From assembly GCA_046726415.1 (NCBI GenBank), contig JBKPAK010000151.1, positions 1-13,998 of the forward strand: a stretch of DNA of 13,998 bases, given 5' to 3'. How positions within the stretch are numbered: position 1 is the first letter of the stretch; each line of letters starts with the position of its first letter. Origin of the DNA: Candidatus Methylomirabilota bacterium (lineage in GTDB: Bacteria > Methylomirabilota > Methylomirabilia > Rokubacteriales > CSP1-6). Positions 2,614 through 13,610 of this stretch are shown one piece after another. Under the pieces are notes generated by a model that saw only the letters and a program-made list of their open reading frames with translations, ran no database searches and was not told the DNA's origin. The position numbers and the translations under genes were made by a program.

Positions 2614-2642
2614 TTGCGTGCTCTCGGGGCGGCCGGTACACT
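2614..2642 (+). promoter_or_regulatory. Sigma70-type promoter candidate for the enzyme operon
   Basis: TTGCGT (2614-2619), 17-nt spacer, TACACT (2637-2642). ATG 2651 follows after 8 nt with no SD, consistent with a leaderless or near-leaderless mRNA. Confidence 0.6.
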
Positions 2643-2650
2643 CACGGGCC

Positions 2651-3694
2651 ATGACCATTCGCTGGGATGCCTATCGCACGGCGCTGCCGTCCATCGAGCG
2701 CGCGGTAAGCCGCACGCCTCTCGTGAAGCTCAATCGCATCCTCACCGTCGGTCCACCCATCTACGTGAAGGTGGAGTGGTTCGGGCCCTCCGGCAGCCTC
2801 AAGGACCGCATCTACCTCCACATGTTCGAGCAAGCGGAGGCCCGCGGCGATCTCCGACCCGGCATGCGCGTGCTCGAGTGCTCGACGGGGAACGCCGGCA
2901 TTGCCTGCTCGTTCGTGGCTGCCGTCAAAGGCTATCCGTGCACGGTCGTGATGCCGGACGGCATGAGCGAGGAGCGGAAGAAGATCATGCGCGCCTATGG
3001 CGCCGACCTGGTCTTCACACCGGGTGGCGAGAGCGACGTCGATCTGTCACTCAAGAAACTCGAGGCCATCCGGGCGCGCGATCCCAGCGGGTACTGGGTG
3101 CCTGGACAGTTCGGGAACGCCGACAACATCGACGCGCACTACCGCACCACCGGTCCCGAGATCTGGGAGCAAGCCGGAGGTATCGTGGGCGCCTTCGTCG
3201 CTGCCCAGGGCAGCGGTGGGACCCTGAGTGGCGTCGGACGGTACTTGCGCGAGCGCGACGGTCGGGTCAAGCTCTACGCGGTGGAGCCAGACGAGTGCGC
3301 GCTTCTCTCGCGACGAGCCTGGGGTCCGCACGGCATCGAGGGGATCGGCGACGGCTTCATCCCTGCGAACCTCGACGTCTCGCTGCTCACCGGGATCATC
3401 ACGACCGGCACCGACGAGAGCGTCGGCATGGCTCGCCGCATTGCCCGCGAGGAAGGGCTCTTCTGCGGGATCTCCACCGGATGCAATGTGGCGGCGGCCA
3501 TCAAGCTCGCTCACCGCCATCCGGAGTTGCCGTCGATCATCACCATGGTGAACGACACTGGGCAGCGCTACTTCACCACCCCGCTGTGCGGCGAGACCAA
3601 ACAGGTGGACGTGCCGGAGCGGGATCACCCCATGGACGAGCGAACACGCCGTGAGCTCGATCGCTACCAGGCGCGCTGGGAGATCCTGACGTGA
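2651..3694 (+). CDS. PLP-dependent cysteine-synthase-family (fold type II) enzyme, divergent
   Basis: RTPLVKL, SGSLKDR (PLP Lys51), ECSTGNAG, MSEERKKIMRAYGA, QFGNADN..AHY.TTGPEIWEQ, GSGGT, HGIEGIGDGFIP, EEGLFCGISTG, DTGQRY. 347 aa from ATG 2651, with a C-terminal extension. Confidence 0.9.
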   Translation: MTIRWDAYRTALPSIERAVSRTPLVKLNRILTVGPPIYVKVEWFGPSGSLKDRIYLHMFEQAEARGDLRPGMRVLECSTGNAGIACSFVAAVKGYPCTVVMPDGMSEERKKIMRAYGADLVFTPGGESDVDLSLKKLEAIRARDPSGYWVPGQFGNADNIDAHYRTTGPEIWEQAGGIVGAFVAAQGSGGTLSGVGRYLRERDGRVKLYAVEPDECALLSRRAWGPHGIEGIGDGFIPANLDVSLLTGIITTGTDESVGMARRIAREEGLFCGISTGCNVAAAIKLAHRHPELPSIITMVNDTGQRYFTTPLCGETKQVDVPERDHPMDERTRRELDRYQARWEILT

Positions 3695-4647
3695 GGCCCG
3701 GCGAGTACGACTTCGTGGCCGCCCGCCGGCGCCTGGAGGGCAAGGCCAAGTCGGCCGGCGAGAAGCTCACCTCAGTCGAGGACGCCGTGCTCCGCGTGAA
3801 GGACGGTGACCACGTCGCGGTGGGTGGCTGCCTCTTCTCGCGGACGCCGATGGCGCTGGTGCGCGAAATCCTCCGCCAGCGCCGGACCGGTCTGACTCTC
3901 TCGCGAAACCTCATGTGCACGGAGGGCGAGTTCCTCATGGTGACGGGCGGTGTCGAGCGCGTCGTCACCGCCTGGATGTCCATCGGCCTGCCCTGGGGGG
4001 TCTCGAAGATCCTCCGCCACTACGTGGAGTCGGGCAGGGTGGCCCTTGAAGAGTGGAGCCATCTGGCCCTTGGCTTGCGCTTCCGGGCGGCGGCCATGGG
4101 AGTGCCGTTCCTTCCCGCGCTGACCATGCTGGGCTCGGATCTCATGGGCGTGGGGGGCATGAAGACCATCCAGGATCCCTACACGGGCGAAACGCTGGCC
4201 GCCGTCCCCGCGCTGTTCCCCGACGTGGGCATCGTGCACGTGCACCGGGCCGACCGCTTCGGCAACTGTCAGATCGACGGGTACCCTCACATGGACGCCG
4301 ACATCGCCCGGGCGGCGAGCACTGTGCTCGTCACCACGGAGGAAATCATCTCGGACGAAGACACTCGGCGCTATCCCGATCGGACGGTCATCCCCGGCTT
4401 TGCCGTCGACGCGCTCGTCCACGCTCCCTTCGGATCCTTTCCCCACGAGTGCTACGCCCTCTACGAGGCCGACTACGATCACTTCGGGGACTACACGGCC
4501 GCCATCGACGCCCGGGGCCCGGCCGCCGTGGCGGACTATCTCGATCGCTACGTCTTCCAGCCCGCCACCTTTGTCGACTACCTGGATCTCTTCGGCGGAG
4601 CACGCCTGGCCGAACAGCAACGGAAGGCCCGCGAGCTCACCCGATGA
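3691..4647 (+). CDS. Family I CoA-transferase subunit A (GctA/CatI-like)
   Basis: VKDGDHVAVGG, RTPMALVREI, EEWSH.AL.LRFRAAAMGVPFLP, LGSDL, DPYTGE, PDVGIVHVHRADRFGN, VTTEEII, PFGSFPHECY. Its GTG overlaps the upstream TGA (GTGA 3691-3694). Confidence 0.92.
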   Translation: MRPGEYDFVAARRRLEGKAKSAGEKLTSVEDAVLRVKDGDHVAVGGCLFSRTPMALVREILRQRRTGLTLSRNLMCTEGEFLMVTGGVERVVTAWMSIGLPWGVSKILRHYVESGRVALEEWSHLALGLRFRAAAMGVPFLPALTMLGSDLMGVGGMKTIQDPYTGETLAAVPALFPDVGIVHVHRADRFGNCQIDGYPHMDADIARAASTVLVTTEEIISDEDTRRYPDRTVIPGFAVDALVHAPFGSFPHECYALYEADYDHFGDYTAAIDARGPAAVADYLDRYVFQPATFVDYLDLFGGARLAEQQRKARELTR

Positions 4648-4802
4648 CCCCGCGACTGCCTCGAACAGCCCACCCGCGGCTCACGCCGCCCTCCAGCCCG
4701 TCGCTACCAACGACCCCGCGCCTGCCTCGAACAGCCCACCCGCGGCTCACGCCGCCCTCCAGCCCGTCGCTACCAACGCCGCCACGCCCGCCTCGACAAT
4801 GA
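4644..4802 (+). CDS. Putative 52-aa Pro/Arg-rich repeat peptide bridging the two CoA-transferase genes
   Basis: ATG 4644 overlaps the subunit A stop (ATGA 4644-4647); its TGA overlaps the subunit B start (ATGA 4799-4802). Sequence M-(TPRLPRTAHPRLTPPSSPSLPT)x2-PPRPPRQ. Translation is inferred only from the coupling geometry. Confidence 0.35.
   Translation: MTPRLPRTAHPRLTPPSSPSLPTTPRLPRTAHPRLTPPSSPSLPTPPRPPRQ
4646..4796 (+). repeat. 66-bp tandem direct repeat, two full copies plus a degenerate partial third
   Basis: 4646-4711 and 4712-4777 are identical except A4655/C4721; 4778-4796 matches the start of unit 2 at 15 of 19 positions. Confidence 0.95.
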
Positions 4803-5569
4803 CCTCGCGGTTCAACGCGTCCGAGCTGCTCGCGGTGATCGCATCTCGGCAGCTCCGCGACGACACCACGGTCTTCGCTGGCGTTGGAGTCCCGCTGCTC
4901 GCCGCCGCCCTCGCCAAGCAGCGTCACGCGCCCCGCCTCACCCTGGTGATCGAGGGAGGCATCATCGGGCCCGAGATCGCGCCCGGCCGGCTGCCGATCT
5001 CCACCAACGAGATGCGCGCTGGACATCGGGCCACCATGTTGCCCGGAATCACCGACGCCTTCCTCTTCGCCCAGCGCGGCTTCGTGGACGTCGGTTTCAT
5101 GGGCGGCGCCCAGATCGACCAGTACGGCAACATCAACACCAGCGCGATCGGCGGGGACTACTGGAAACCGAACGTGCGGCTCCCGGGCACCGGGGGGGCC
5201 AACGACATCGCTTCCCTGTGTCGCGAGGTCATCATCGTGACGCCCCACGAGAAGCGCCGCTTTGTCGAGCACGTCGATTTCATCACCAGCCCCGCCTGGC
5301 TCGAGGGCGATGGCTCGCGCCGCCGCGCTGGTCTCCTCTTTGGCGGCGTCTCGCGCGTGGTCACCACGCTCGGCATCTTCGGCTTCGACCCCCAGACGCG
5401 ACGCATGCGCATCGAAGCCACCTACCCGGAGGTGACCGTCGAGACCATCCGGGCGCACACCGGCTTCGAGCTGGGCGTCGCCGCCGAGGTGGGTATCACC
5501 GATCCGCCCGGGGAGGACGAGCTGGCCATGCTGCGTGCCCTAGATCCGGAGCGCCGTTTTCTCGGCTAG
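4799..5569 (+). CDS. Family I CoA-transferase subunit B (GctB/CatJ-like)
   Basis: ELLAVIASRQL, VFAGVGVP, HAPRLTLVIEGG (Glu52, the position of the catalytic Glu of GctB), DVGFMGGAQIDQYGNINT, RLPGTGGANDIAS, HEKRRFVEHVDFITSP, VVTTLGIFGFD, TGFEL. 256 aa from ATG 4799. Confidence 0.93.
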   Translation: MTSRFNASELLAVIASRQLRDDTTVFAGVGVPLLAAALAKQRHAPRLTLVIEGGIIGPEIAPGRLPISTNEMRAGHRATMLPGITDAFLFAQRGFVDVGFMGGAQIDQYGNINTSAIGGDYWKPNVRLPGTGGANDIASLCREVIIVTPHEKRRFVEHVDFITSPAWLEGDGSRRRAGLLFGGVSRVVTTLGIFGFDPQTRRMRIEATYPEVTVETIRAHTGFELGVAAEVGITDPPGEDELAMLRALDPERRFLG

Positions 5570-5586
5570 CCCCAAGGAGTCGCTGC

Positions 5587-6522
5587 GTGCACATCGGTCT
5601 CGCCATCAAGAATTTCGTGGGGCCCACCGAGACGCCTGACGTCGATGCCATCATCGCCTATGCCGAGCGCGCCGAGACACTCGGCTTCGAGTCGCTGTGG
5701 GCGTGGGATCACGTCATTCTCGGAGTGGAGCCGTCCTTTCCCATCCTCGAGGCCGTGGGCATCCTGACCGCCGTGGCCGCTCGCACGCGCGTCATCAAGT
5801 TGGGCACCGGCGTCATGGTGCTCCCGCTGCGCAATCCGACCGTGACCGCCAAGGCCCTCGGGACCCTCGACGTCATCTCCAAGGGACGGCTCATCCTGGG
5901 CGTGGCCGCTGGCTGGTACGCGCGGGAGTTCGACGCGGTCGGCGTGCCCTTCAAGCAGCGCGGCCGGCTCTTCGAAAGGAATCTCGACATCCTGACCCGT
6001 CTGTGGGCAGAGGATCGCGTCAGTCTGCAGAGAGACGAGTTCAACCTGCGCGAGGCGGTGATGCGCCCGCGAACGGTACAGCAGCCGCGACCGCCGATCC
6101 TGATCGGCGGCTACGTGAACGCCGTGCTCCGGCGCGTGGCGACCAGAGGCGACGGCTGGTTGACCTATTTCTACACTCCGGACAGCTACCGGAAGTCATG
6201 GGAGAAGATCGTTGGCTTTGCCCGCGAGGCGGGCCGCAATCCCCAGACTCTCACCGGCACCAATCAGCTTGCCATCTACGTGGGGCGATCCCGCGCGGAG
6301 ACGGAAGGGCCCATGCGGCACTGGCTTCAGACGGAGTGGGACGTGGCGGCGTGGAGCGAGTCCACCATCGAGCATGCCATCCGAGGGAGCGTGGACGAGT
6401 GCGTGAGCCAGCTCCGCGATCACGTGGCCACGGGCGTGGACAGGCTCATCCTGATCCCCTATCGCTATGAGCCCGCGCAGGTCGAAATCATCGCCCGAGA
6501 GATTCTTCCCCGTCTGCAATGA
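5587..6522 (+). CDS. LLM-class (luciferase-like) flavin- or F420-dependent oxidoreductase
   Basis: AAGGAG SD at 5574-5579 before GTG 5587; AERAETLGFESLWAWDH, AARTRVIKLGTGVMVLPLRNP, LDVISKGRLILGVAAGW..EF..VG, QQPRPPILIGG, RVATRGDGW. 311 aa. Confidence 0.93.
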   Translation: MHIGLAIKNFVGPTETPDVDAIIAYAERAETLGFESLWAWDHVILGVEPSFPILEAVGILTAVAARTRVIKLGTGVMVLPLRNPTVTAKALGTLDVISKGRLILGVAAGWYAREFDAVGVPFKQRGRLFERNLDILTRLWAEDRVSLQRDEFNLREAVMRPRTVQQPRPPILIGGYVNAVLRRVATRGDGWLTYFYTPDSYRKSWEKIVGFAREAGRNPQTLTGTNQLAIYVGRSRAETEGPMRHWLQTEWDVAAWSESTIEHAIRGSVDECVSQLRDHVATGVDRLILIPYRYEPAQVEIIAREILPRLQ

Positions 6523-6573
6523 CGCCCTCTGGGCCCATCGCTCGCGACCTCCAGCGCAAGCCGGGCTAGTGCC

Positions 6574-7236
6574 GTGCCATACAGCGCCGACCGCGCCGCC
6601 ACCTTTGACCGCGTCCTCCGCCCCGAGCGCGGACAGACCGCGCTCCTGGTCGTGGACATGCAGCGCGGTTTTCTGGATCCGGGCGAACCCATGGAAGTGC
6701 CGCCGGCCCGCGACATCGTCCCCATCATCCAAGGGCTTCTCGACCTCTTCCGGGTCAAGGAGCTGCCCGTGATCTTCTCCGAGTTCGTCTATTCGCCTGA
6801 GGTGCCCCTTCTCGTCGGAGAGCTTCACGTGGAGCACAAGCCCGCGCCGGCCGACGTGCCACGCGGCTTCGGAACGCCCTCGTCCAGCTGTCTGGAGGGC
6901 GACCCCAGCGCTCACACCGTGCGGGCCCTCGCACCCCGACCCGGGGAGCTAGTCGTGCGCAAGCGCTGGTATGACGCCTTCGCCGGCACGCCTCTCGACG
7001 GCGCGCTGCGGGCCCGGCGGATCACCGCGCTCGTCATGACGGGAACGATGACCGACATCTGCGTGCTGGCCACCGTCATCGGCGCCTTCAACCGGGAGTA
7101 CCGGATCTCCGTGGTGGAGGATGGCGTGGCTACGCTGTGGCCGGAGATCCAGCATGCTACCCTCGACATCATCCGCCGCGCCTACGGCCGGGTGATCCCG
7201 GCCAAGGCCGTGGCTGACGAACTCGGACAGTGGTGA
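6574..7236 (+). CDS. Isochorismatase-family cysteine hydrolase (amidohydrolase)
   Basis: Catalytic triad D28 (ALLVVDMQRGF), K130 (VRKRWYDAF), C163 (GTMTDICV); VVEDGVA. No obvious PncA-type DxH metal motif. Confidence 0.92.
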   Translation: MPYSADRAATFDRVLRPERGQTALLVVDMQRGFLDPGEPMEVPPARDIVPIIQGLLDLFRVKELPVIFSEFVYSPEVPLLVGELHVEHKPAPADVPRGFGTPSSSCLEGDPSAHTVRALAPRPGELVVRKRWYDAFAGTPLDGALRARRITALVMTGTMTDICVLATVIGAFNREYRISVVEDGVATLWPEIQHATLDIIRRAYGRVIPAKAVADELGQW

Positions 7237-7246
7237 GGAGCCGGCG

Positions 7247-8176
7247 ATGAGCGTACCCCTAACCTTCTCCGGTGTGATGCCCGCGAATATCCTGCCGTTC
7301 CTGGCCGACCTTTCCATCGACGAACCGGCGTACCGCAGGCACCTGCGCTGGCTCGCTGACACGCGCGGCGTGACGGGCATCGTGGCCAACGGTCACGCCG
7401 CGGAAGTCTCCTCCCTGACCCGCGAGGAACGCAGGCGCGCGCTGGCCATTGCGCTCGACCAGGTCGCCGGCGCTTGTCCGGTGGTGGCGGGCGTGTACTC
7501 CGACGGCACGCGGGAAGCGGTCGAGTTTGCGCGCGAGGCGAAGGTGGAGGGGGCGGCCGGCGTCCTCGTCTTTCCGCCCACGCTGTTCATGTGGGGTGCC
7601 CAAAACAAGCCCGACATGGTCATGCGCCACTTCTCGGAGATCGCGGCCGGGGCGGACCTTCCCATCATCGTCTTCGAGTATCCTCCGGCCTCGGGAATCG
7701 GCTACGCGCCGGAGACGCTGGCTCGGCTGACCGAGATCCCGCAGGTGGCCGGCGTGAAGGACTGGTCCAACGACATCGTGGCCTTCGAGCGGAATCTGCG
7801 CGCCCTCCGCGCCACCGGGCGCCCGGTGGCCATGCTGTCGTCGTTCACCATGTCGCTGATGTCGACGTTCCTGCTGGGTGCCGATGGAGCCATCTCGGGG
7901 ATGGGCAGCGTGACCGCCGACCTACAGGGGGAATTGTTCGACTTGTGTCAGAAGGGCGATGTGGACGGCGCTCGGCGAGTGAACGACCGTCTGGATCACC
8001 TGGTCCGCGTCTTCTACGCCCCACCATTCGTCGACATGCACAATCGCATGAAGGAAGCGCTGGTCATCCTGGGCCGCATTCCGGCAGCCCATGTCCGCCC
8101 TCCGCTCACGCCCGTGAGCGACGCCGAGCGCGACGCGATCCGGGACGCCCTGCGGGCCGCCGGCCTCTCCCGATAG
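7247..8176 (+). CDS. DHDPS/N-acetylneuraminate-lyase superfamily enzyme (class I aldolase fold), non-canonical
   Basis: GAGGAG SD at 7235-7240; GVMPANILPF...SID, NGHAAEVSSLTREER, PVVAGV, GAAGVLVFPP, DLPIIVF, AGVKDWS (Schiff-base Lys171), LGADGAISG, KEAL..LG, VRPPL. Confidence 0.92.
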   Translation: MSVPLTFSGVMPANILPFLADLSIDEPAYRRHLRWLADTRGVTGIVANGHAAEVSSLTREERRRALAIALDQVAGACPVVAGVYSDGTREAVEFAREAKVEGAAGVLVFPPTLFMWGAQNKPDMVMRHFSEIAAGADLPIIVFEYPPASGIGYAPETLARLTEIPQVAGVKDWSNDIVAFERNLRALRATGRPVAMLSSFTMSLMSTFLLGADGAISGMGSVTADLQGELFDLCQKGDVDGARRVNDRLDHLVRVFYAPPFVDMHNRMKEALVILGRIPAAHVRPPLTPVSDAERDAIRDALRAAGLSR

Positions 8177-8239
8177 CCTCTCTCGGCGCGGGCGGACCCC
8201 CGTGGGTCCGCGCCAGGCACCGGCCGAAGGGGCACGGCG

Positions 8240-8286
8240 CCGTGGGCAACGACCCCGGCATCGTTGCCAGGGCCACGGTCTCTTCT
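8240..8286 (+). terminator. Candidate intrinsic terminator after the enzyme operon
   Basis: GGCAACGA (8245-8252) pairs with TCGTTGCC (8261-8268), extended by CCGTG/CACGG (8240-8244, 8274-8278), then TCTCTTCT (8279-8286). A second perfect stem GCGGACCC/GGGTCCGC lies at 8192-8211. The U-tract is weak. Confidence 0.4.
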
Positions 8287-8346
8287 GACAATCTCCCTGT
8301 CCCGCCGTCGGCTCTCAGTTTGAGGTGGCCGCGAAAAACAACTCGA

Positions 8347-8375
8347 TTGCAATGCCCGGCGCCAGCGAGTATAAG
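8347..8375 (+). promoter_or_regulatory. Sigma70-type promoter candidate for the ABC transporter operon
   Basis: TTGCAA (8347-8352), 17-nt spacer, TATAAG (8370-8375), preceded by an A-rich tract (GAAAAACAA) in otherwise GC-rich DNA. Confidence 0.6.
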
Positions 8376-8475: not shown

Positions 8476-9774
8476 ATGCGTCGGTTCCTACCTTTGGGTT
8501 TTTTGTCCTGCTTGCTAGCGGTCGGAACTCTGGCCTTCATGCTGACTGCCCCTGTCCCGGTGGCCTCCCAGGCCCGACCCGCAGGGGCCCCGACCGAACT
8601 GAAGGTCGGGTTCGTCGATTTCCTCTCCGGCCCGGCGGTCCTCTTTGGCGCCTCCGGAAAAAACACCGCGGAGTGGATGGTCGACAAGTGGAACAAGGAG
8701 GGCGGCATCCGGGGCGTTAAGGTAAGGCTCGTGATCGTGGACGAGGCCGGTGGCCCGGACAAGCAGGTCACCGAGTTTCGGCGTCTGGCCCTCGACGAGA
8801 AGGTGGACACCGTCGTCGGCTTCACCTCGAGCGCCACCTGCCTCGCCGTGGCGCCGGTGGCCGAGGAACTGAAAGTACTCACCGTCGTCCATATCTGCGG
8901 GACTCGCCGTTTGACCGAGGAGCGACCGCTGAAGTACGTCTTCAGAACCTCCAATCATCAAGCGGCAGACAGCGTGATGCTAGCCCGGTATGTCCTCGCG
9001 GTGAAGCCGGACGTGAGAACCATCGCCGGCGCGAACGAGGACTACGCCTGGGGCCGGGACTCCTGGGATGACTTCAAGGGGTCGATGCTCCGGCTCAAGC
9101 CGGACGTAAAGGTCGTGGCGGAACTCTGGACGAAGATCCAGGCCGGGGAGTATTCGGCGGAGATCTCGAAGCTTCTGGTGGCGAAGCCCGACGTGGTCCA
9201 CAGCACCTTCTGGGCGGCTGGGCTGATCACGTTCATCAAGCAGGGCGCGCCCCGGGGGCTGTTCAAGGACAGCCTCGTGACCTTGAGCGTGGCTGAACAG
9301 TCACTCCAGGATCTCAAGAAGGAGATGCCCGACGGTGTGATCGTCGCTCCGAGAGCGACGCCGGGCTACTTCCTCTTTCCGGACCCGGCAAAGAATCCCC
9401 TCCAGAAGGAATTCGTCGAGGGAATCAAAGCGCGCTACGGACGCTATCCCGAGTACGCGTATCACCGCACGTACCAGGCGTTCGCGGGGCTTAAGGCCGC
9501 CTACGAGAAGGCCATCGACCAAAGCGGCGGCAAATGGCCGAAGACCGAGGACGTCACCAAGGCCTTTGAAGGGCTGACCTGGCCAACGCCGTACGGAACC
9601 ATCACCATGCGAGCCGATCACCAGGCCGTCCACGGGGGGTTGGTCGGGCTGACCAAGTTCAATCCTCAGTACGGCTTCCCCACGATGGATCGAGTGGCGA
9701 CGTTCCGGGCGGAGGAGATCATGCCCCCCGTTGGGGTGAAGAGTCCTGACTGGATCGCCCAGCTCCCGAAGTAG
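8476..9774 (+). CDS. HAAT/Liv-type ABC transporter substrate-binding protein
   Basis: AGGAGG SD at 8464-8469 before ATG 8476; signal peptide MRRFLPLGFLSCLLAVGTLAFML...; LKVGFVDFLSGP, NKEGGIRG, VVGFTSSA, YVFRT, DYAWG, TPYG.ITMRADHQ typical of type I periplasmic binding proteins. 432 aa. Confidence 0.93.
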   Translation: MRRFLPLGFLSCLLAVGTLAFMLTAPVPVASQARPAGAPTELKVGFVDFLSGPAVLFGASGKNTAEWMVDKWNKEGGIRGVKVRLVIVDEAGGPDKQVTEFRRLALDEKVDTVVGFTSSATCLAVAPVAEELKVLTVVHICGTRRLTEERPLKYVFRTSNHQAADSVMLARYVLAVKPDVRTIAGANEDYAWGRDSWDDFKGSMLRLKPDVKVVAELWTKIQAGEYSAEISKLLVAKPDVVHSTFWAAGLITFIKQGAPRGLFKDSLVTLSVAEQSLQDLKKEMPDGVIVAPRATPGYFLFPDPAKNPLQKEFVEGIKARYGRYPEYAYHRTYQAFAGLKAAYEKAIDQSGGKWPKTEDVTKAFEGLTWPTPYGTITMRADHQAVHGGLVGLTKFNPQYGFPTMDRVATFRAEEIMPPVGVKSPDWIAQLPK

Positions 9775-9795
9775 CTTTCCCGCGCAATTCAAGGC

Positions 9796-9834
9796 ACGAG
9801 GGGCGGGAGGGTTGAGTTCCCTCCCCTCCCTCGT
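9796..9834 (+). promoter_or_regulatory. Intercistronic stem-loop after the binding-protein gene (mRNA stabiliser or partial terminator)
   Basis: ACGAGGG-GC-GGGAGGG (9796-9811) pairs with CCCTCCC-CT-CCCTCGT (9819-9834) around loop TTGAGTT; no U-tract. This position is typical for ABC operons. Confidence 0.65.
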
Positions 9835-9856
9835 CCCGCTCTAGCCGAGGCGTCGC

Positions 9857-10753
9857 ATGCGCCTTCTCACCACGATCGCCATGGACGGGACGGTATTTGC
9901 GGCCATCCTCTTTCTTATCTCGGTGGGCTTGACCCTGGTCTTTGGCGTGCTTCGCATCCTCAACGTGGCCCATGGCGGCCTCTACGCCTTCGGGGCCTTC
10001 ACGGCCACCACGTCGGCTTTGCTGCTCCTGAACCTGGGGGCGAATCCTTACCTCACCTACCTGATGCTCCTGCTGGCACCCGTGATCGTGGGCGTCATCG
10101 CTGGTCCCCTCATCGAGCGCGTCTTCCTGCAGCGGGTGTACGGCCGCGCCGAGGCGATCCAACTCCTGCTCACGTTTTCGATCTTCCTGATCCTGGACGA
10201 CCTGATCAAGCTCATCTGGGGGACCAAGCCGCTGTTCGTGAGCGAGCCCTACACACTCCTCGGGGAGTTTTCCCTTTCGGGCATTCGTTACTCCTGGTAC
10301 CAGGTGATGCTGATCGCCGTGGCCATCCTCTTCGGGGGAGTGCTGGTCTGGGCCGTGCGGGGCACCCGCATTGGCAAGATCGCCGTCTCGGTGATCAACG
10401 ACCGCGAGATCAGTCAGGCCATCGGCATCAACGTGAACCGTGTGTATATGGGTGCGTTTACCCTGGGTGCCTTCTGCGCCGCCCTGGGAGGGGCCCTCAT
10501 CGCGCCGACCATCGCCGTGGCGCCGGGCTTCGCCGTGGACGCCACGGTGCTGGCGTTCGCCGTGATCGCCATCGGAGGCATGGGAAACCTGGAAGGTGCC
10601 GCTCTGGGCGCGCTGATGGTGGGATTGCTCCGAGCGCTGGCTGTGCACCTCCTGCCGGAGGCCGACCTGGTGGTGATCTACCTGGCGATGATCGTGGTGC
10701 TGGTGATCCGGCCGCAGGGGCTCTTCGGTCAAGTGGAGCTGCGAAGGATTTGA
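9857..10753 (+). CDS. Branched-chain amino acid-type ABC permease (LivH-like)
   Basis: LISVGLTLVFGVLRILNVAHG, LIERVFL, LLLTF, TRIGK...DREI..AIGINV, AALGGAL, AVIAIGGMGNLEGA, IRPQGLFG; multiple hydrophobic segments. Confidence 0.94.
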   Translation: MRLLTTIAMDGTVFAAILFLISVGLTLVFGVLRILNVAHGGLYAFGAFTATTSALLLLNLGANPYLTYLMLLLAPVIVGVIAGPLIERVFLQRVYGRAEAIQLLLTFSIFLILDDLIKLIWGTKPLFVSEPYTLLGEFSLSGIRYSWYQVMLIAVAILFGGVLVWAVRGTRIGKIAVSVINDREISQAIGINVNRVYMGAFTLGAFCAALGGALIAPTIAVAPGFAVDATVLAFAVIAIGGMGNLEGAALGALMVGLLRALAVHLLPEADLVVIYLAMIVVLVIRPQGLFGQVELRRI

Positions 10754-11706
10754 TGCTGGCCCCCACGGTCGGTGTAGCGCTGCTCCTCGTTGTGCCTCTC
10801 ATCCTGCCCGACTGGATGAAGTTCATCGTCACGCTCGCCATGGCCAAATTCGTGGCCGTGTTGGCAGTGGCGCTCTTCCTCAGAGCCAACCTGGTGACCT
10901 TTGGCCACGCCATGTTCTATGCAGTGGGCGCCTACGCGGTCGGCTTCAGCGTCAAGTGGTTTCGCTTCGATGACATGGTGATACTGCTCCCGCTCGGGGC
11001 TCTGCTGGGGGCCGGCGTGGCCGCCCTTGTCGGCCTGGTCATCGCCCGATACCGGGAAGTCTTCTTCGCCATGCTCAACCTGGCCTTCTCCATGATGCTC
11101 TACGGCGTTCTCCTCAAGCTCTATTGGCTCACCGGCGGGACGGACGGACTCGGCGTGGGAGTACCCAAGTTTCTGGGGTACACGCCGCCGAGGGAATTTC
11201 TGAGAGACGTTCTGTACTACACGACGCTTGGTGTGGTGGGGATTGTCATTTACGCGGTCTATCGTTTCCTGGCCTCCCCGCTCGGATTCTATCTCCGGGC
11301 CTTTGCCGACAACGAGATCCGCATCGAATACTCAGGCGAATCGGTGCGACGCATCCTCTACGTCACCTACATCCTTTCGGGTGCGCTCGCCGGGCTGGCT
11401 GGGGTCCTGGCCGCCTTCACCGTCGGGCACATCGTGCCGGAGTATTCCTTCTGGATCCAGTCCGGCGACTTCGTCTTCGTCGCGCTTCTCGGAGGGTACG
11501 GGAGCGTGGTCGGTCCCCTGATCGGCTCCATCGCCTTCGAGTTCATCCGCACCTACGCCTCCAAGTACTTTCCCAACGAATGGCAGATGACCCTCGGCAT
11601 CATCATGCTCGCGATCATCCTCTTCCGCCCCGGGGGACTCTGGGCCATCTACGAGGCCCTGGCCGCCCGCATCAGAAGGCGGCCGAGCGAGGGGCAGCGT
11701 GCCTGA
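10753..11706 (+). CDS. Branched-chain amino acid-type ABC permease (LivM-like)
   Basis: TGATG overlap with the upstream gene; LVTFGHAMFYAVGAY, FFAMLNLAF, LTGGTDGL, SPLG..LRA..DNE.R, LLGGYGSVVGP, FRPGGL. Confidence 0.94.
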   Translation: MLAPTVGVALLLVVPLILPDWMKFIVTLAMAKFVAVLAVALFLRANLVTFGHAMFYAVGAYAVGFSVKWFRFDDMVILLPLGALLGAGVAALVGLVIARYREVFFAMLNLAFSMMLYGVLLKLYWLTGGTDGLGVGVPKFLGYTPPREFLRDVLYYTTLGVVGIVIYAVYRFLASPLGFYLRAFADNEIRIEYSGESVRRILYVTYILSGALAGLAGVLAAFTVGHIVPEYSFWIQSGDFVFVALLGGYGSVVGPLIGSIAFEFIRTYASKYFPNEWQMTLGIIMLAIILFRPGGLWAIYEALAARIRRRPSEGQRA

Positions 11707-12451
11707 CGCATCGATCCTGAGAACGGTCGATCTAACCAAGTCCTTCGGGATGGTGACGGCGGCCGATCGGATCAATCTAGAGATCGGCGCGGGCGAGTTG
11801 GTCGGAATCGTGGGAGCCAACGGGTCGGGGAAGACCACGTTCCTAAACCTGATCACGGGCTATCTGACGCCCGAAGGGGGCCGCATCTTTCTGATGGGGG
11901 AAGATCGCACCGGGTTGCCACCCCGCGTGATCACCCGGCTCGGAATCGCCCGTTCGTTCCAGATCCCTCAGCTCTACACCAATCTGAGCGTTCTAGAGAG
12001 CCTCCTGCTCTCCCTGGCGGCCCAGGCCGGCAAGGGGGCCGGCTTCTGGCGACCGCTCTACCGGCAACCGTGGATGGAGGAAGGCCTGGAAACCCTCACG
12101 CGATTCGGCCTGGAGACCAATGCCCACCGGCCGGTCAGCGAGTTGCCGGAGGGCGGCCGGAAGCTGCTCGACATCGCTCTGTCCTTTGCCCTCAAGCCGA
12201 AGCTTCTCCTGATGGACGAGCCCACAAGCGGCGTCAGCATCAAGGACAAGTTCCAGATCATGGACACCCTCATTGCGGTCGTGCAGGAGAGCCGTCTCAC
12301 GACGATCTTCGTCGAGCACGACATGGAGGTGGTGCAGCGCTATGGTCGGCGGGTGCTGGCCTTCAACGACGGCCGGGTGATCGCTGATGGGAGACCGGAG
12401 GCGGTGCTGGCTGATCCGGACGTCCGGAAGGCCGTTCTGGGTCGGGTGTAG
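11699..12451 (+). CDS. ABC ATP-binding protein (LivG-like)
   Basis: Walker A GANGSGKTT, GIARSFQIPQL, LPEGGRKLLDIA, Walker B LLLMDEPTSG, VEHDM, DPDVRKAVLG. Confidence 0.95.
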   Translation: MPDASILRTVDLTKSFGMVTAADRINLEIGAGELVGIVGANGSGKTTFLNLITGYLTPEGGRIFLMGEDRTGLPPRVITRLGIARSFQIPQLYTNLSVLESLLLSLAAQAGKGAGFWRPLYRQPWMEEGLETLTRFGLETNAHRPVSELPEGGRKLLDIALSFALKPKLLLMDEPTSGVSIKDKFQIMDTLIAVVQESRLTTIFVEHDMEVVQRYGRRVLAFNDGRVIADGRPEAVLADPDVRKAVLGRV

Positions 12452-12453
12452 CG

Positions 12454-13104
12454 ATGCTCACCGTCGAGAAACTCTGCGTCAGCATCAAGGGATTCCCCAT
12501 TCTCCGCGGGGTGACCATGGAGATCCCGGAAGGAGGCCTGGTCGGTCTGGTGGGCCGAAATGGCGCCGGGAAGACGACCACCCTCAAGGGCATCCTGGGT
12601 TTGGTGCCGGTGACGGGCGGACGCATCGCGCTGGATGGGAGGGATCTCGTGCAGGTACCCGCGCACAAGCGCGCCCCGCTGGGGATCGGCTACATGCCCG
12701 AGGATCGACGGCTCATCGGCGCCTTGACCGTCGAGGACAACATCCTGATGCCGGCGTGGGCCACGGGGCGCACGGACGATCGCCAGCGGCTCCGATACAT
12801 CTACGAGATCATGCCCGACGTGCCGCCGCTGGCCCGACGGCGAGCGTCAACGCTCTCCGGTGGCCAGCAGAAGATGGCGGCGCTGGCTCGGGCGGTGATG
12901 ACAGGCACGAAGGTCTTGCTCCTGGATGAGGCCTTCGAGGGGCTCTCCCCCGCCACCGGTGAAAAGTTCACCGGAAGCATCCTGGCGCTCCAGCGGGAGG
13001 GGCTGGCCATCCTCATCGCCGAATCGGACGACAAGCGTCTCAGCTTCGTGAAGCGCATCTACACCATCGAGCGCGGCGAGATCGCGGCCTCGACTGAGGC
13101 GTGA
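12454..13104 (+). CDS. ABC ATP-binding protein (LivF-like)
   Basis: Walker A GRNGAGKTT, GIGYMPEDRR, LTVEDN, signature LSGGQQKM, Walker B LLLDEAFEGLSP. Confidence 0.94.
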   Translation: MLTVEKLCVSIKGFPILRGVTMEIPEGGLVGLVGRNGAGKTTTLKGILGLVPVTGGRIALDGRDLVQVPAHKRAPLGIGYMPEDRRLIGALTVEDNILMPAWATGRTDDRQRLRYIYEIMPDVPPLARRRASTLSGGQQKMAALARAVMTGTKVLLLDEAFEGLSPATGEKFTGSILALQREGLAILIAESDDKRLSFVKRIYTIERGEIAASTEA

Positions 13105-13610
13105 GAGTGCTGTGGGGCCGGATCGTCGCGCTTGCGGCGGCGCTGGCGACGCCGGCGTTCGCCCTCGACACGCCTAACGAACGGATCACGCTGGTGGGGC
13201 TGACCGGCGTCCACGTGGTCGTCTACGACATAGGCGGAGAGGGAGAACGAGCCGGGCTCGGGCCATCGAGCCTCCAGGCGGAACTGGAGCAACGGCTCAG
13301 AAAGGCCGGGCTCCGCGCCCTCGGCGCGCGCGAGGCGCTCAAATCCTCGAGCCGGCCAACTCTCGAGCTCCGGCTGAAACTGGTGCGCTCCCACGAGGCA
13401 CCCCCGCTCTACATCTACAGCGTTGATCTGGCACTGCGGCAGCAGATCCAGCTCGCGCGGGACCGAAAGATCGATTCGTTCGCCATCACGTGGAGCGATC
13501 CCCCGGAGGTGGGCGCGGTCGGGCCTGCGCGCGTGTCCGTCGTCCGCGATGCGATCCGTGCCAAGGTGGAGCAGTTCCTCTCGGCGTGGCAGGCCGCCAA
13601 CCCGGATTGA
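13101..13610 (+). CDS. Hypothetical secreted protein
   Basis: GTGA overlap with the LivF-like stop; Sec signal peptide MRVLWGRIVALAAALATPAFA-LD (AxA site); natural-looking alpha/beta sequence and GC3 bias. No named domain recognised. Confidence 0.8.
   Translation: MRVLWGRIVALAAALATPAFALDTPNERITLVGLTGVHVVVYDIGGEGERAGLGPSSLQAELEQRLRKAGLRALGAREALKSSSRPTLELRLKLVRSHEAPPLYIYSVDLALRQQIQLARDRKIDSFAITWSDPPEVGAVGPARVSVVRDAIRAKVEQFLSAWQAANPD

Follow-up and report, generated by a model that had tools for sequence, protein, structure and literature searches.

A conserved Rokubacterial gene core uniting a GctAB-type CoA-transferase, a predicted F420-dependent oxidoreductase and a CysK-like enzyme of a distinct subfamily

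What does a soil bacterium do with six consecutive enzyme genes that, taken together, belong to no pathway we can name? The question is raised by a contig of 13,998 bp, analysed over its whole length and called the window below, from a metagenome-assembled genome of a soil member of the Rokubacteria/Methylomirabilota (7.6 Mb, 98% complete). Soil metagenome runs of several studies carry near-identical copies of this stretch, and no RNA run was among those listed. According to its open reading frames (ORFs) and Pfam, the window holds on the plus strand trmD, rplS, rnhB, yraN, the six enzyme genes that we call g1 to g6, and a Liv-type ABC importer. Families were assigned from the ORF listing with Pfam and the curated cut-offs of NCBIfam, and solved relatives were taken from PDB matches. 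An earlier note on this DNA had described six co-oriented genes of named families, and both their orientation and their families (Pfam) are as it claimed:

2651..3694, plus strand: g1, CysK-like fold-type-II pyridoxal phosphate (PLP) enzyme, 347 amino acids (aa); PALP, 238 bits
3691..4647, plus strand: g2, GctA-like CoA-transferase alpha subunit, 318 aa; CoA_trans, 96.9 bits
about 4799..5569, plus strand: g3, GctB-like CoA-transferase beta subunit, 256 aa; CoA_trans, 98.5 bits
about 5587..6522, plus strand: g4, LLM-class (luciferase-like) oxidoreductase, TIGR03619 (Rv2161c-type), 311 aa; Bac_luciferase, 180 bits
6574..7236, plus strand: g5, isochorismatase-family cysteine hydrolase (amidase type), 220 aa; Isochorismatase, 132.6 bits
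7247..8176, plus strand: g6, DHDPS/NAL-fold enzyme, 309 aa; DHDPS, 147.8 bits

The answer that we favour, tentatively and with confidence a little short of even, is that the operon is functional, is inherited within its lineage and would encode an F420-dependent, CoA-activated catabolic route for a nitrogen-containing carboxylate. Our functional statements rest on sequence and genomic context, the directly observed part being the families, the catalytic residues, the synteny and the linkage of g2-g3-g4 to F420 genes. Neither NCBIfam nor searches of the openly readable literature matched the operon to a characterised pathway, and the same literature yielded no description of the function of the operon or of its g2-g3-g4 trio.

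The conserved core and its enzymes

That these genes belong together is borne out by their synteny in dozens of other genomes, far beyond chance. Orthologues of g2 (55-92% identity) occur in 22/41 related genomes, a count that takes in the window's own genome and the unpublished genome G011, and the operon is present in 18/25 genomes of the family, the window's own included. Twenty of the genomes with g2, G011 not among them, were fetched with flanks: g1-g2-g3-g4 lie together in 17 of them, g6 is found in 11 and g5 in 5. To widen the sample, one genome per species was scanned; of the 202 relatives that turned up, the 80 best were retained, making 81 loci with the window. These 80 relatives are labelled Candidatus Rokubacteria, Rokuibacteriota or Methylomirabilota, together with a few labelled Binatia, Chloroflexota, Verrucomicrobiia and others whose synteny is identical. 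Genes were counted in the 81 loci with our own GC3-based gene caller followed by clustering, only assessable loci entering the denominators, and g2 was accompanied as follows:

g1: 76/79 assessable loci
g3: 74/77 assessable loci
g4: 69/71 assessable loci
g5: 33/62 assessable loci
g6: 44/62 assessable loci
LamB/YcsF gene: 11/63 assessable loci

Most apparent misses are failures of the gene caller, as tblastn still detects the genes; one locus has no g4 (L097) and two have no upstream g1 (L124 and L139). The conserved core is g1-g4, and g5 and g6 are accessory. What survives of the six-enzyme unit proposed in the earlier note is this core, since the counts of g5 and g6 speak against a fixed set of six genes.

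Two arrangements of the core were found. In clade A, where g2 is at least about 75% identical to that of the window, yraN is followed by a PhzF-family gene (10 loci), g1-g4, g5 in part of the loci, g6 and a Liv ABC system, and a short-chain dehydrogenase/reductase gene stands directly after g6 in 8/29 loci. In the sister clade B (about 68-72% identical) a LamB/YcsF (PxpA-like) gene follows g1-g2-g3-g4, without g5 and g6. The hydrolase is thus swapped between the clades, isochorismatase-type g5 in one against a LamB/PxpA-type lactamase in the other. Upstream of g1, clade B has a GntR/FCD regulator directly adjacent in 7/11 loci, a divergent Liv ABC system in 5/11 and a molybdenum (Mo)-binding subunit of the xanthine dehydrogenase (XDH) family in 3/11. 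Clade B loci (e.g. L141, 12454-16927) also hold conserved convergent genes for a glycosyltransferase, a thiamine pyrophosphate (TPP) enzyme, an FAD/NAD-binding reductase and a second LLM protein.

Luciferase-like oxidoreductases are greatly expanded in this Rokubacterium, whose genome yields 105 matches to one LLM query. As LLM and Liv-type genes are both very numerous in Rokubacteria, single adjacencies of the kind seen here could be accidental and the whole a chance assortment of unrelated genes. We give this next to no credence, as the four core genes keep their order across both clades at 68-92% identity, g1 and g2 overlap, and the trio g2-g3-g4 recurs in Alphaproteobacteria. Furthermore, paralogous GctAB loci in 8 related genomes (about 40% identity, from the same taxonomic order), which served as a negative control, have a g1 or g4 neighbour in 0/8 cases, indicating that the link among the core genes is specific.

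The best solved relative of both g2 and g3 is the glutaconate CoA-transferase GctAB of Acidaminococcus fermentans (1POI; g2 against 1poi_A, 4.9e-42; g3 against 1poi_B, 9.4e-46), with which they have in common the two-subunit class I architecture. The IEGG of g3 (V-I-E-G-G) aligns with VESG of 1poi_B, whose Glu we take to be the catalytic residue, and this residue, E52, is kept in 71/71 orthologues. A decarboxylase of the AibAB type or a hydrolase of the IpdAB type was rejected for g2/g3: AibB (5n02) has Gly-Ser in place of the Glu-Gly of g3, and the matches to IpdAB are weaker (1e-13 to 1e-21). Because g3 retains the Glu that AibB lacks, g2/g3 should be a true, catalytically competent GctAB-type CoA-transferase. 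The relationship to GctAB itself is nevertheless distant, with NCBIfam subfamily scores far below their cut-offs, and the operon has none of the genes of the hydroxyglutarate pathway.

As for g4, its TIGR03619 score of 197.2 exceeds the cut-off of 166.9, and it matches the FMN-dependent sulfur monooxygenase families SfnG (81 bits) and SsuD (55 bits) weakly, F420 families scoring far higher. The search for F420 biosynthesis genes that the earlier note had recommended found cofD at 319 bits and cofH at 484 bits, each above its cut-off, on one contig of the genome (C175). On family model and genomic linkage, F420 is the predicted and very probable cofactor of g4.

The first gene of the core resembles a cysteine synthase and differs from it in fixed ways. 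Its best PDB match is 2egu (8e-78), with SLKDR, STGNAG and GSGGT in the alignment, and it has in common with CysK/O-acetylserine sulfhydrylase the fold, the PLP lysine (K in 71/71 orthologues), the phosphate-binding glycine loop and the Ser/Thr at the pyridine nitrogen. In contrast to CysK, it scores below the cut-offs of both NCBIfam models (cysK TIGR01139, 319.5 against 350.95; cysKM, 324.3 against 344.15), its Asn/substrate loop reads CSTGNAG in 70-71/71 orthologues instead of TSGNTG, which we take to be the canonical motif, and its C-terminus is lengthened by a conserved stretch of about 35 aa (P-x-R-x-H-P-x-D ... Q-x-x-W-E). On other contigs the genome has canonical cysK genes, three in number (433, 403 and 401 bits, all over the cut-off), and one true dapA, on contig C238 (366 bits); these are the housekeeping genes that the earlier note had advised looking for. 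Judged by sequence, g1 is a member of a distinct subfamily of CysK-like PLP enzymes of the beta-replacement/elimination kind. It is also similar to the O-ureidoserine synthase 3x43 (5.5e-65) and to SbnA (176 bits). A search of the ESM Atlas with g1 gave generic PALP clusters alone, and among representative proteins just one matched g1 over the full length at more than 50% identity (63%, 350 aa); all further matches of at least 51% are partial (proteins of 157-322 aa), and further matches that cover most of g1 reach 47% at most.

The two accessory enzymes also keep catalytic residues of their folds. In g5, whose best PDB match is annotated 'cysteine hydrolase' (6xix, 8e-20), the Asp, Lys and Cys that presumably form the isochorismatase-like triad lie in VVDMQ, RKRWY and TDICV, and D28, K130 and C163 are kept in 30-31/31 orthologues. 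g6 has the TIM-barrel fold of the DapA/NAL-superfamily aldolases and their Schiff-base lysine (G-V-K-D against 3si9 and 2rfg; K in 41/41 orthologues). It differs from them at the Thr/Tyr/Tyr positions of the proton relay: compared with 3si9, 2rfg and YagE it has NGHAAE for GTTGE, FEYP for YNIP and PPTLFMWG for PYY, in 40-41/41 orthologues, and its dapA score (TIGR00674) is 134.5 for a cut-off of 206.15. The roles given here to active-site residues of g1, g3, g5 and g6 follow the literature on the respective families. These positions are invariant or nearly so across 31-71 orthologues, and the altered motifs of g1 and g6, which the earlier note had pointed out, are confirmed as near-invariant; for this reason we regard the changes as selected features and not as decay.

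The presence of an isochorismatase-family gene after an LLM gene had led the earlier note to compare g4 and g5 with RutA and RutB of pyrimidine utilisation. The analogy consists in this adjacency and in a weak match of g5 to RutB (64.9 bits; PDB 8bkd, 4.3e-15), and it fails elsewhere. The RutB cut-off is 377.95, and g5 is likewise far from biuret hydrolase in NCBIfam; the best family of g4 is the F420-type TIGR03619, RutA not being among the 25 matches listed of 31; families RutC to RutG are absent from the window; and g5 is missing from 29/62 assessable loci, the other clade having the LamB-type protein instead. With family scores and gene content both against it, a Rut-like ring opening is very improbable here and the Rut pathway as such was ruled out.

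Relatives on plasmids of Sinorhizobium and haloarchaea

Orthologues outside the phylum bear on the function of the core. In a tblastn search of plasmids, the best match of g2 was Sinorhizobium pSymA (45% identity over 97% of the query), and the best plasmid matches of g4 were these same Sinorhizobium loci (49-51%, the next about 30%). There the trio g2-g3-g4 is found in the same order (45%, 56% and 49% identity, respectively). Its LLM protein, a member of TIGR03619 (190 bits), finds g4 with 360 bits in the reciprocal search against 154 for the next of the 105 LLM matches in the Rokubacterial genome. The island around the trio, at about 44.4-65.3 kb of Sinorhizobium meliloti pSymA CP130049.1 (L151/L152), holds according to its annotation and our own scans PyrC (a second copy), a Liv ABC system, npdG, cofE, cofD, cofC, cofGH, the GctA-like, GctB-like and LLM genes, an M20 deacylase, pntAB and XDH-family subunits; the F420 biosynthesis set is complete, and the trio stands immediately behind it. 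Like the Rokubacterial operon, the pSymA island of Sinorhizobium meliloti/fredii thus has the orthologous trio with a Liv-type ABC system adjacent; it differs in having no g1-, g5- or g6-like genes and in bringing its own F420 biosynthesis genes, Fno, PntAB, PyrC and M20 deacylase. Judged by its gene content, it looks like a self-contained F420-powered pathway. With F420 synthesis genes, Fno and a transhydrogenase as its neighbours, the trio would seem to consume F420H2, g4 acting as a reductase; this direction is inferred from the neighbours. Genes of this island were among the hits of a genome-wide association study of nodule competitiveness in strains GR4, KH35c and KH46, the one paper naming these genes that the searches turned up, the accessible part of which gives no function for them (PMC8407117). 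A looser arrangement is seen on a Natrinema plasmid, where a GctAB-like pair (43% and 47% identity) stands beside cofH and an F420-type LLM gene of another subfamily; a TPP enzyme, like that of clade B, is also encoded near these Natrinema genes.

The relatives of g1 lead to a different setting. Its best plasmid matches are in two haloarchaea (54% and 52% identity), ordinary cysK genes following at about 45% or less. The Haladaptatus protein is 54% identical to g1 over its full length, has in common with it the CSTGNAGIAC loop and the C-terminal tail, prefers g1 over the canonical CysKs of the Rokubacterial genome in the reciprocal search (411 against 221 bits) and groups with g1 in a tree (support 83/87). 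The plasmid genes of Haladaptatus halobius (L153) and Halostella pelagica (L156) can thus be placed in the g1 subfamily, at 52-54% identity with loop and tail in common. In both, the gene sits between yqeC and moeA/mocA, with yqeB, selD, an XdhA-like hydroxylase and purine transporters as further neighbours and, in Haladaptatus, also TusA- and DsrE/DsrH-type sulfur-relay genes. This context is a selenium-dependent molybdenum-hydroxylase cluster, and a literature search found no described role for a g1-type CysK-like gene in such clusters. These plasmids differ from the Rokubacterial operon in having no orthologous GctAB, one giving no match and the other a GctA-like gene of just 32% identity.

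We considered whether the operon might belong to this trait and rejected it: yqeB (TIGR03309) has 0 matches in the 98%-complete Rokubacterial genome, the trio is absent from the haloarchaeal plasmids, and neither the Sinorhizobium nor the Natrinema records contain a g1. The Rokubacterial genome does have selD (G000:C223:11994-12938, L154), which contains one in-frame TGA, suggesting a selenocysteine-containing SelD and selenocysteine decoding in this host.

A broader form of the idea is that g1 fixes or releases sulfide or selenide and that the operon breaks down or assembles an organosulfur carboxylate, with CoA activation by g2/g3 and C-S chemistry or a redox step by g4. The likeness of g1 to true cysteine synthases, with all CysK PLP-binding motifs retained and a score near the family cut-off, together with the selenium and sulfur-relay neighbours of its haloarchaeal relatives, keeps this reading alive, and many enzymes that cleave C-S bonds belong to the LLM family, including those that g4 matches weakly. 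Nevertheless, the missing yqeB and the family scores of g4 tell against it, the hydrolases of the operon (amidase, lactamase) point to nitrogen chemistry, the operon contains no serine acetyltransferase or sulfur carrier, and in Sinorhizobium the trio occurs without g1. We regard it as unlikely.

Transcription signals, spacer repeat and importer

The following features surround or interrupt the six genes:

2614..2642, plus strand: promoter candidate, -35-like TTGCGT at 2614-2619, 17-nt spacer, -10 box TACACT at 2637-2642, ending 8 nt before the g1 ATG (2651)
4646..4796, no strand: tandem duplication with a 66-nt unit, 2.3 copies, 94% matches, filling the g2-g3 spacer
8183..8223 and 8226..8285, plus strand: a pair of GC-rich hairpins downstream of g6, a weak terminator at most
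8476..13104, plus strand: Liv/HAAT-type ABC importer; Pfam Peripla_BP_6, BPD_transp_2 twice, ABC_tran twice
8476-9774, plus strand: substrate-binding protein (SBP) of the importer; Peripla_BP_6
9857-10753 and 10750-11706, plus strand: importer permeases; BPD_transp_2 twice
11699-12451 and 12454-13104, plus strand: importer ATPases; ABC_tran twice

The promoter candidate, put forward in the earlier note, was not reported by a scan for consensus promoters, as the pair at 2614-2642 has 8/12 consensus matches. It gains support from orthologous loci: when 33 yraN-g1 spacers were aligned, about 20 of the 22 rows displayed had, 7-8 nt ahead of the g1 start, a -10 box of the form GGTACAAT/GGTACACT. 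The g1 start has no Shine-Dalgarno sequence, either in the window (2630-2653) or in the aligned loci. With the -10 box only 7-8 nt from the start codon, the mRNA would begin with g1 and be leaderless or nearly so, and the operon is probably transcribed from this promoter of its own. The spacing within the operon is as the earlier note had given it: g1 and g2 overlap by 4 nt (GTGA), and the gaps are 151 nt between g2 and g3, 17 between g3 and g4, 51 between g4 and g5 and 10 between g5 and g6.

The g3 ORF has a long upstream extension, and in frame with this lies the 66-nt repeat that takes up the wide g2-g3 gap. Two genomes of the same genus do not have the repeat, their g2-g3 spacers measuring about 11-30 nt, and elsewhere in its own genome just partial matches of 70-77% were found. 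Contigs from four DNA runs are fragmentary; short-read contigs of two runs break inside the repeat (ends at 4675, a start at 4725), and no contig bridges it. The strain-specific duplication is probably not functional. Another repeat expansion at this locus was seen in a relative (L071), in whose yraN-g1 spacer a sequence of about 21 nt (CTCGGGCTGGATCTTCGGCCC-like) is repeated several times in tandem.

At the other end, the terminator that the earlier note had placed at 8240-8286 can be upheld as a hairpin and hardly as a terminator. The hairpin at 8226-8285 (dG -33.3, z -1.94) is barely better than shuffled sequences, 6/200 of which fold equally well, and that at 8183-8223 has a z of -0.96 against shuffles; neither is followed by a run of T, and a terminator scan called none after g6. 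Since the 300-nt gap between g6 and the SBP gene holds TTGCAA-17-TATAAG at 8347-8375, the importer of the window is, on this reading of the sequence, probably a transcription unit separate from g1-g6. A second sigma-70-like hexamer pair lies in the same gap at 8264-8292, and the SBP gene, in contrast to g1, has a strong ribosome-binding site (AAAGGAGG).

A Liv-type importer is a near-constant neighbour of the operon, an SBP gene standing within three genes of g6 in 28/29 loci with enough sequence. Its adjacency, which had led the earlier note to suggest that it feeds the pathway, therefore holds for the type of system and not for the copy: the window's own ABC genes are orthologous in just 1/80 loci (L108), the other loci having a paralogous system. 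Solved relatives of the SBP (best 3i45 and 4ey3, about 1e-26) are too distant to name a ligand; we take 4ey3, 4evs and 4f06 to be proteins that bind benzoate derivatives. The importer genes are followed at 13101-13610 by an ORF (169 aa) whose N-terminus resembles a signal peptide and which matches nothing in Pfam or NCBIfam. The Pfam scan agrees with the earlier note that the window contains no regulator or flavin reductase gene.

The proposed route and its meaning

According to our preferred reading, a nitrogen-containing carboxylic acid (an amide, lactam or heterocyclic acid) would be imported, g5 or the LamB-type protein would hydrolyse its amide or lactam bond, and g2/g3 would turn the carboxylate into a CoA thioester, which g4 would reduce with F420H2 or else oxidise with F420. 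The amino-acid-like product would then be deaminated or beta-eliminated by g1, and the resulting 2-oxo acid might be split by g6 to pyruvate and an aldehyde. The catabolic direction, the order of the steps and the substrate class are our inference. Uptake and breakdown of a nitrogen-containing acid are favoured by the near-constant importer, the GntR regulator of clade B, the interchangeable hydrolases and the XDH-family, PyrC and M20 neighbours. The earlier note had proposed catabolism of an N-heterocycle or another nitrogen-containing acid, and the support found for this is indirect, coming from the regulator, the LamB-type lactamase and the XDH-family subunit of the sister clade and from PyrC, M20 and the XDH-family genes of Sinorhizobium. 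As candidate substrates one may speculate on carboxylates of pyridine or pyrimidine, beta-substituted alanines and lactams of amino-diacids. By way of analogy alone, Eubacterium barkeri and Azorhizobium turn nicotinate into glutarate-type diacids that are CoA-activated.

The genes could alternatively serve biosynthesis, g1 being the synthase of a metabolite or cofactor derived from a beta-substituted alanine and g2-g4 preparing an acyl or reduced nucleophile for it. Members of the CysK family with known function are mostly synthases (e.g. 3x43 and SbnA), the operon is present in 18 of the family's 25 genomes, and most loci adjoin housekeeping genes without a regulator, all of which would suit such a role. 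It is harder to reconcile with the importer (28/29), with the GntR/FCD regulator and divergent importer of the sister clade, with hydrolases that can be swapped and a g6 that is optional, and with the absence of exporter, ligase and carrier genes; in addition, the trio on pSymA stands together with hydrolases and an XDH-family hydroxylase. Taken together, this makes biosynthesis distinctly improbable.

Among described systems, one of similar logic is the 2,8-dioxopurine pathway of gut anaerobes, in which, according to the accessible part of its description, a Mo hydroxylase, ring reduction and opening by an amidohydrolase are followed by a fold-type-II PLP enzyme, YgeX, that yields pyruvate (10.1101/2025.04.24.650524). 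As far as that part goes, the analogy is one of logic alone: there is no gene-for-gene match, the host has no yqeB, the reductant of the operon would be F420H2, and its PLP enzyme is CysK-like, not DpaL-like. By its genes, the operon is not the Rut pathway, not cysteine or lysine biosynthesis, not of the AibAB/IpdAB type and not the 2,8-dioxopurine pathway, with which it would share logic at most.

Several observations weigh against the catabolic route that we prefer. The operon is known from its genes alone. Most loci adjoin housekeeping genes (ffh ... trmD-rplS-rnhB-yraN) and have no regulator. Related genomes cannot be counted as independent samples, and the 80 loci share members with the 20 genomes fetched with flanks. 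For the F420 dependence of g4 the support is a family model together with genomic linkage; cofD passes its cut-off in 38/41 relatives (G011 among the 41), and being near-universal in the order it does not discriminate. The weakest point is the role of g1. This protein is nearest to biosynthetic cysteine synthases, about 30 bits short of the cysK cut-off, and its subfamily relatives with an annotated context, in two haloarchaea, stand among genes of cofactor maturation (yqeB, yqeC, selD, moeA, mocA) and not of catabolism. Furthermore, neither pSymA nor the Natrinema plasmid has a g1-type gene, and the two haloarchaeal plasmids that bear a g1-like gene have no orthologous g2-g3-g4 trio, so that a pathway role for g1 cannot be transferred from one setting to the other.

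A more far-reaching reading, possible although we hold it doubtful, is that the GctAB-type transferase and the TIGR03619 LLM protein would together be a portable unit, a module that performs F420-dependent redox chemistry on CoA thioesters, for instance ring reduction of a heteroaroyl-CoA. Separately, g1 would stand for a new CysK-like class and tie the route to a beta-substituted alanine or to sulfide/selenide chemistry. The module would be common to Rokubacteria and Sinorhizobium, with a looser form in haloarchaea, and would carry out the low-potential reduction of a heterocyclic or unsaturated acyl-CoA. On pSymA, the F420 synthesis genes, Fno and PntAB could power such an acyl-CoA reduction, and the selenium-dependent Mo-hydroxylase setting in haloarchaea is a hint of a sulfide/selenide or beta-substituted-alanine role for g1.

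The operon, putatively catabolic and built of known folds, is new in two respects: its F420/CoA module has no description in the literature searched, and its CysK-like enzyme represents a new subfamily. This subfamily, with its fixed altered loop and fixed C-terminal tail, occurs in two very different genomic contexts, and one F420-type LLM protein among the 105 matches is now tied to defined partner enzymes. Rokubacteria are among the predicted F420 producers, and according to the accessible part of a 2021 review no F420-dependent enzyme had been experimentally studied in bacteria outside the Actinobacteria (PMC8498797). The portable module, if true, would give F420 its first physiological role and its first acyl-CoA substrate outside Actinobacteria and methanogens. 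The locus raises the question of what job F420 has in these bacteria, and which soil compound needs both CoA activation and a low-potential hydride. Rokubacteria are abundant in soil and have never been cultured; the presence of the trio in Sinorhizobium meliloti, which can be cultivated and is genetically tractable, makes its function testable.

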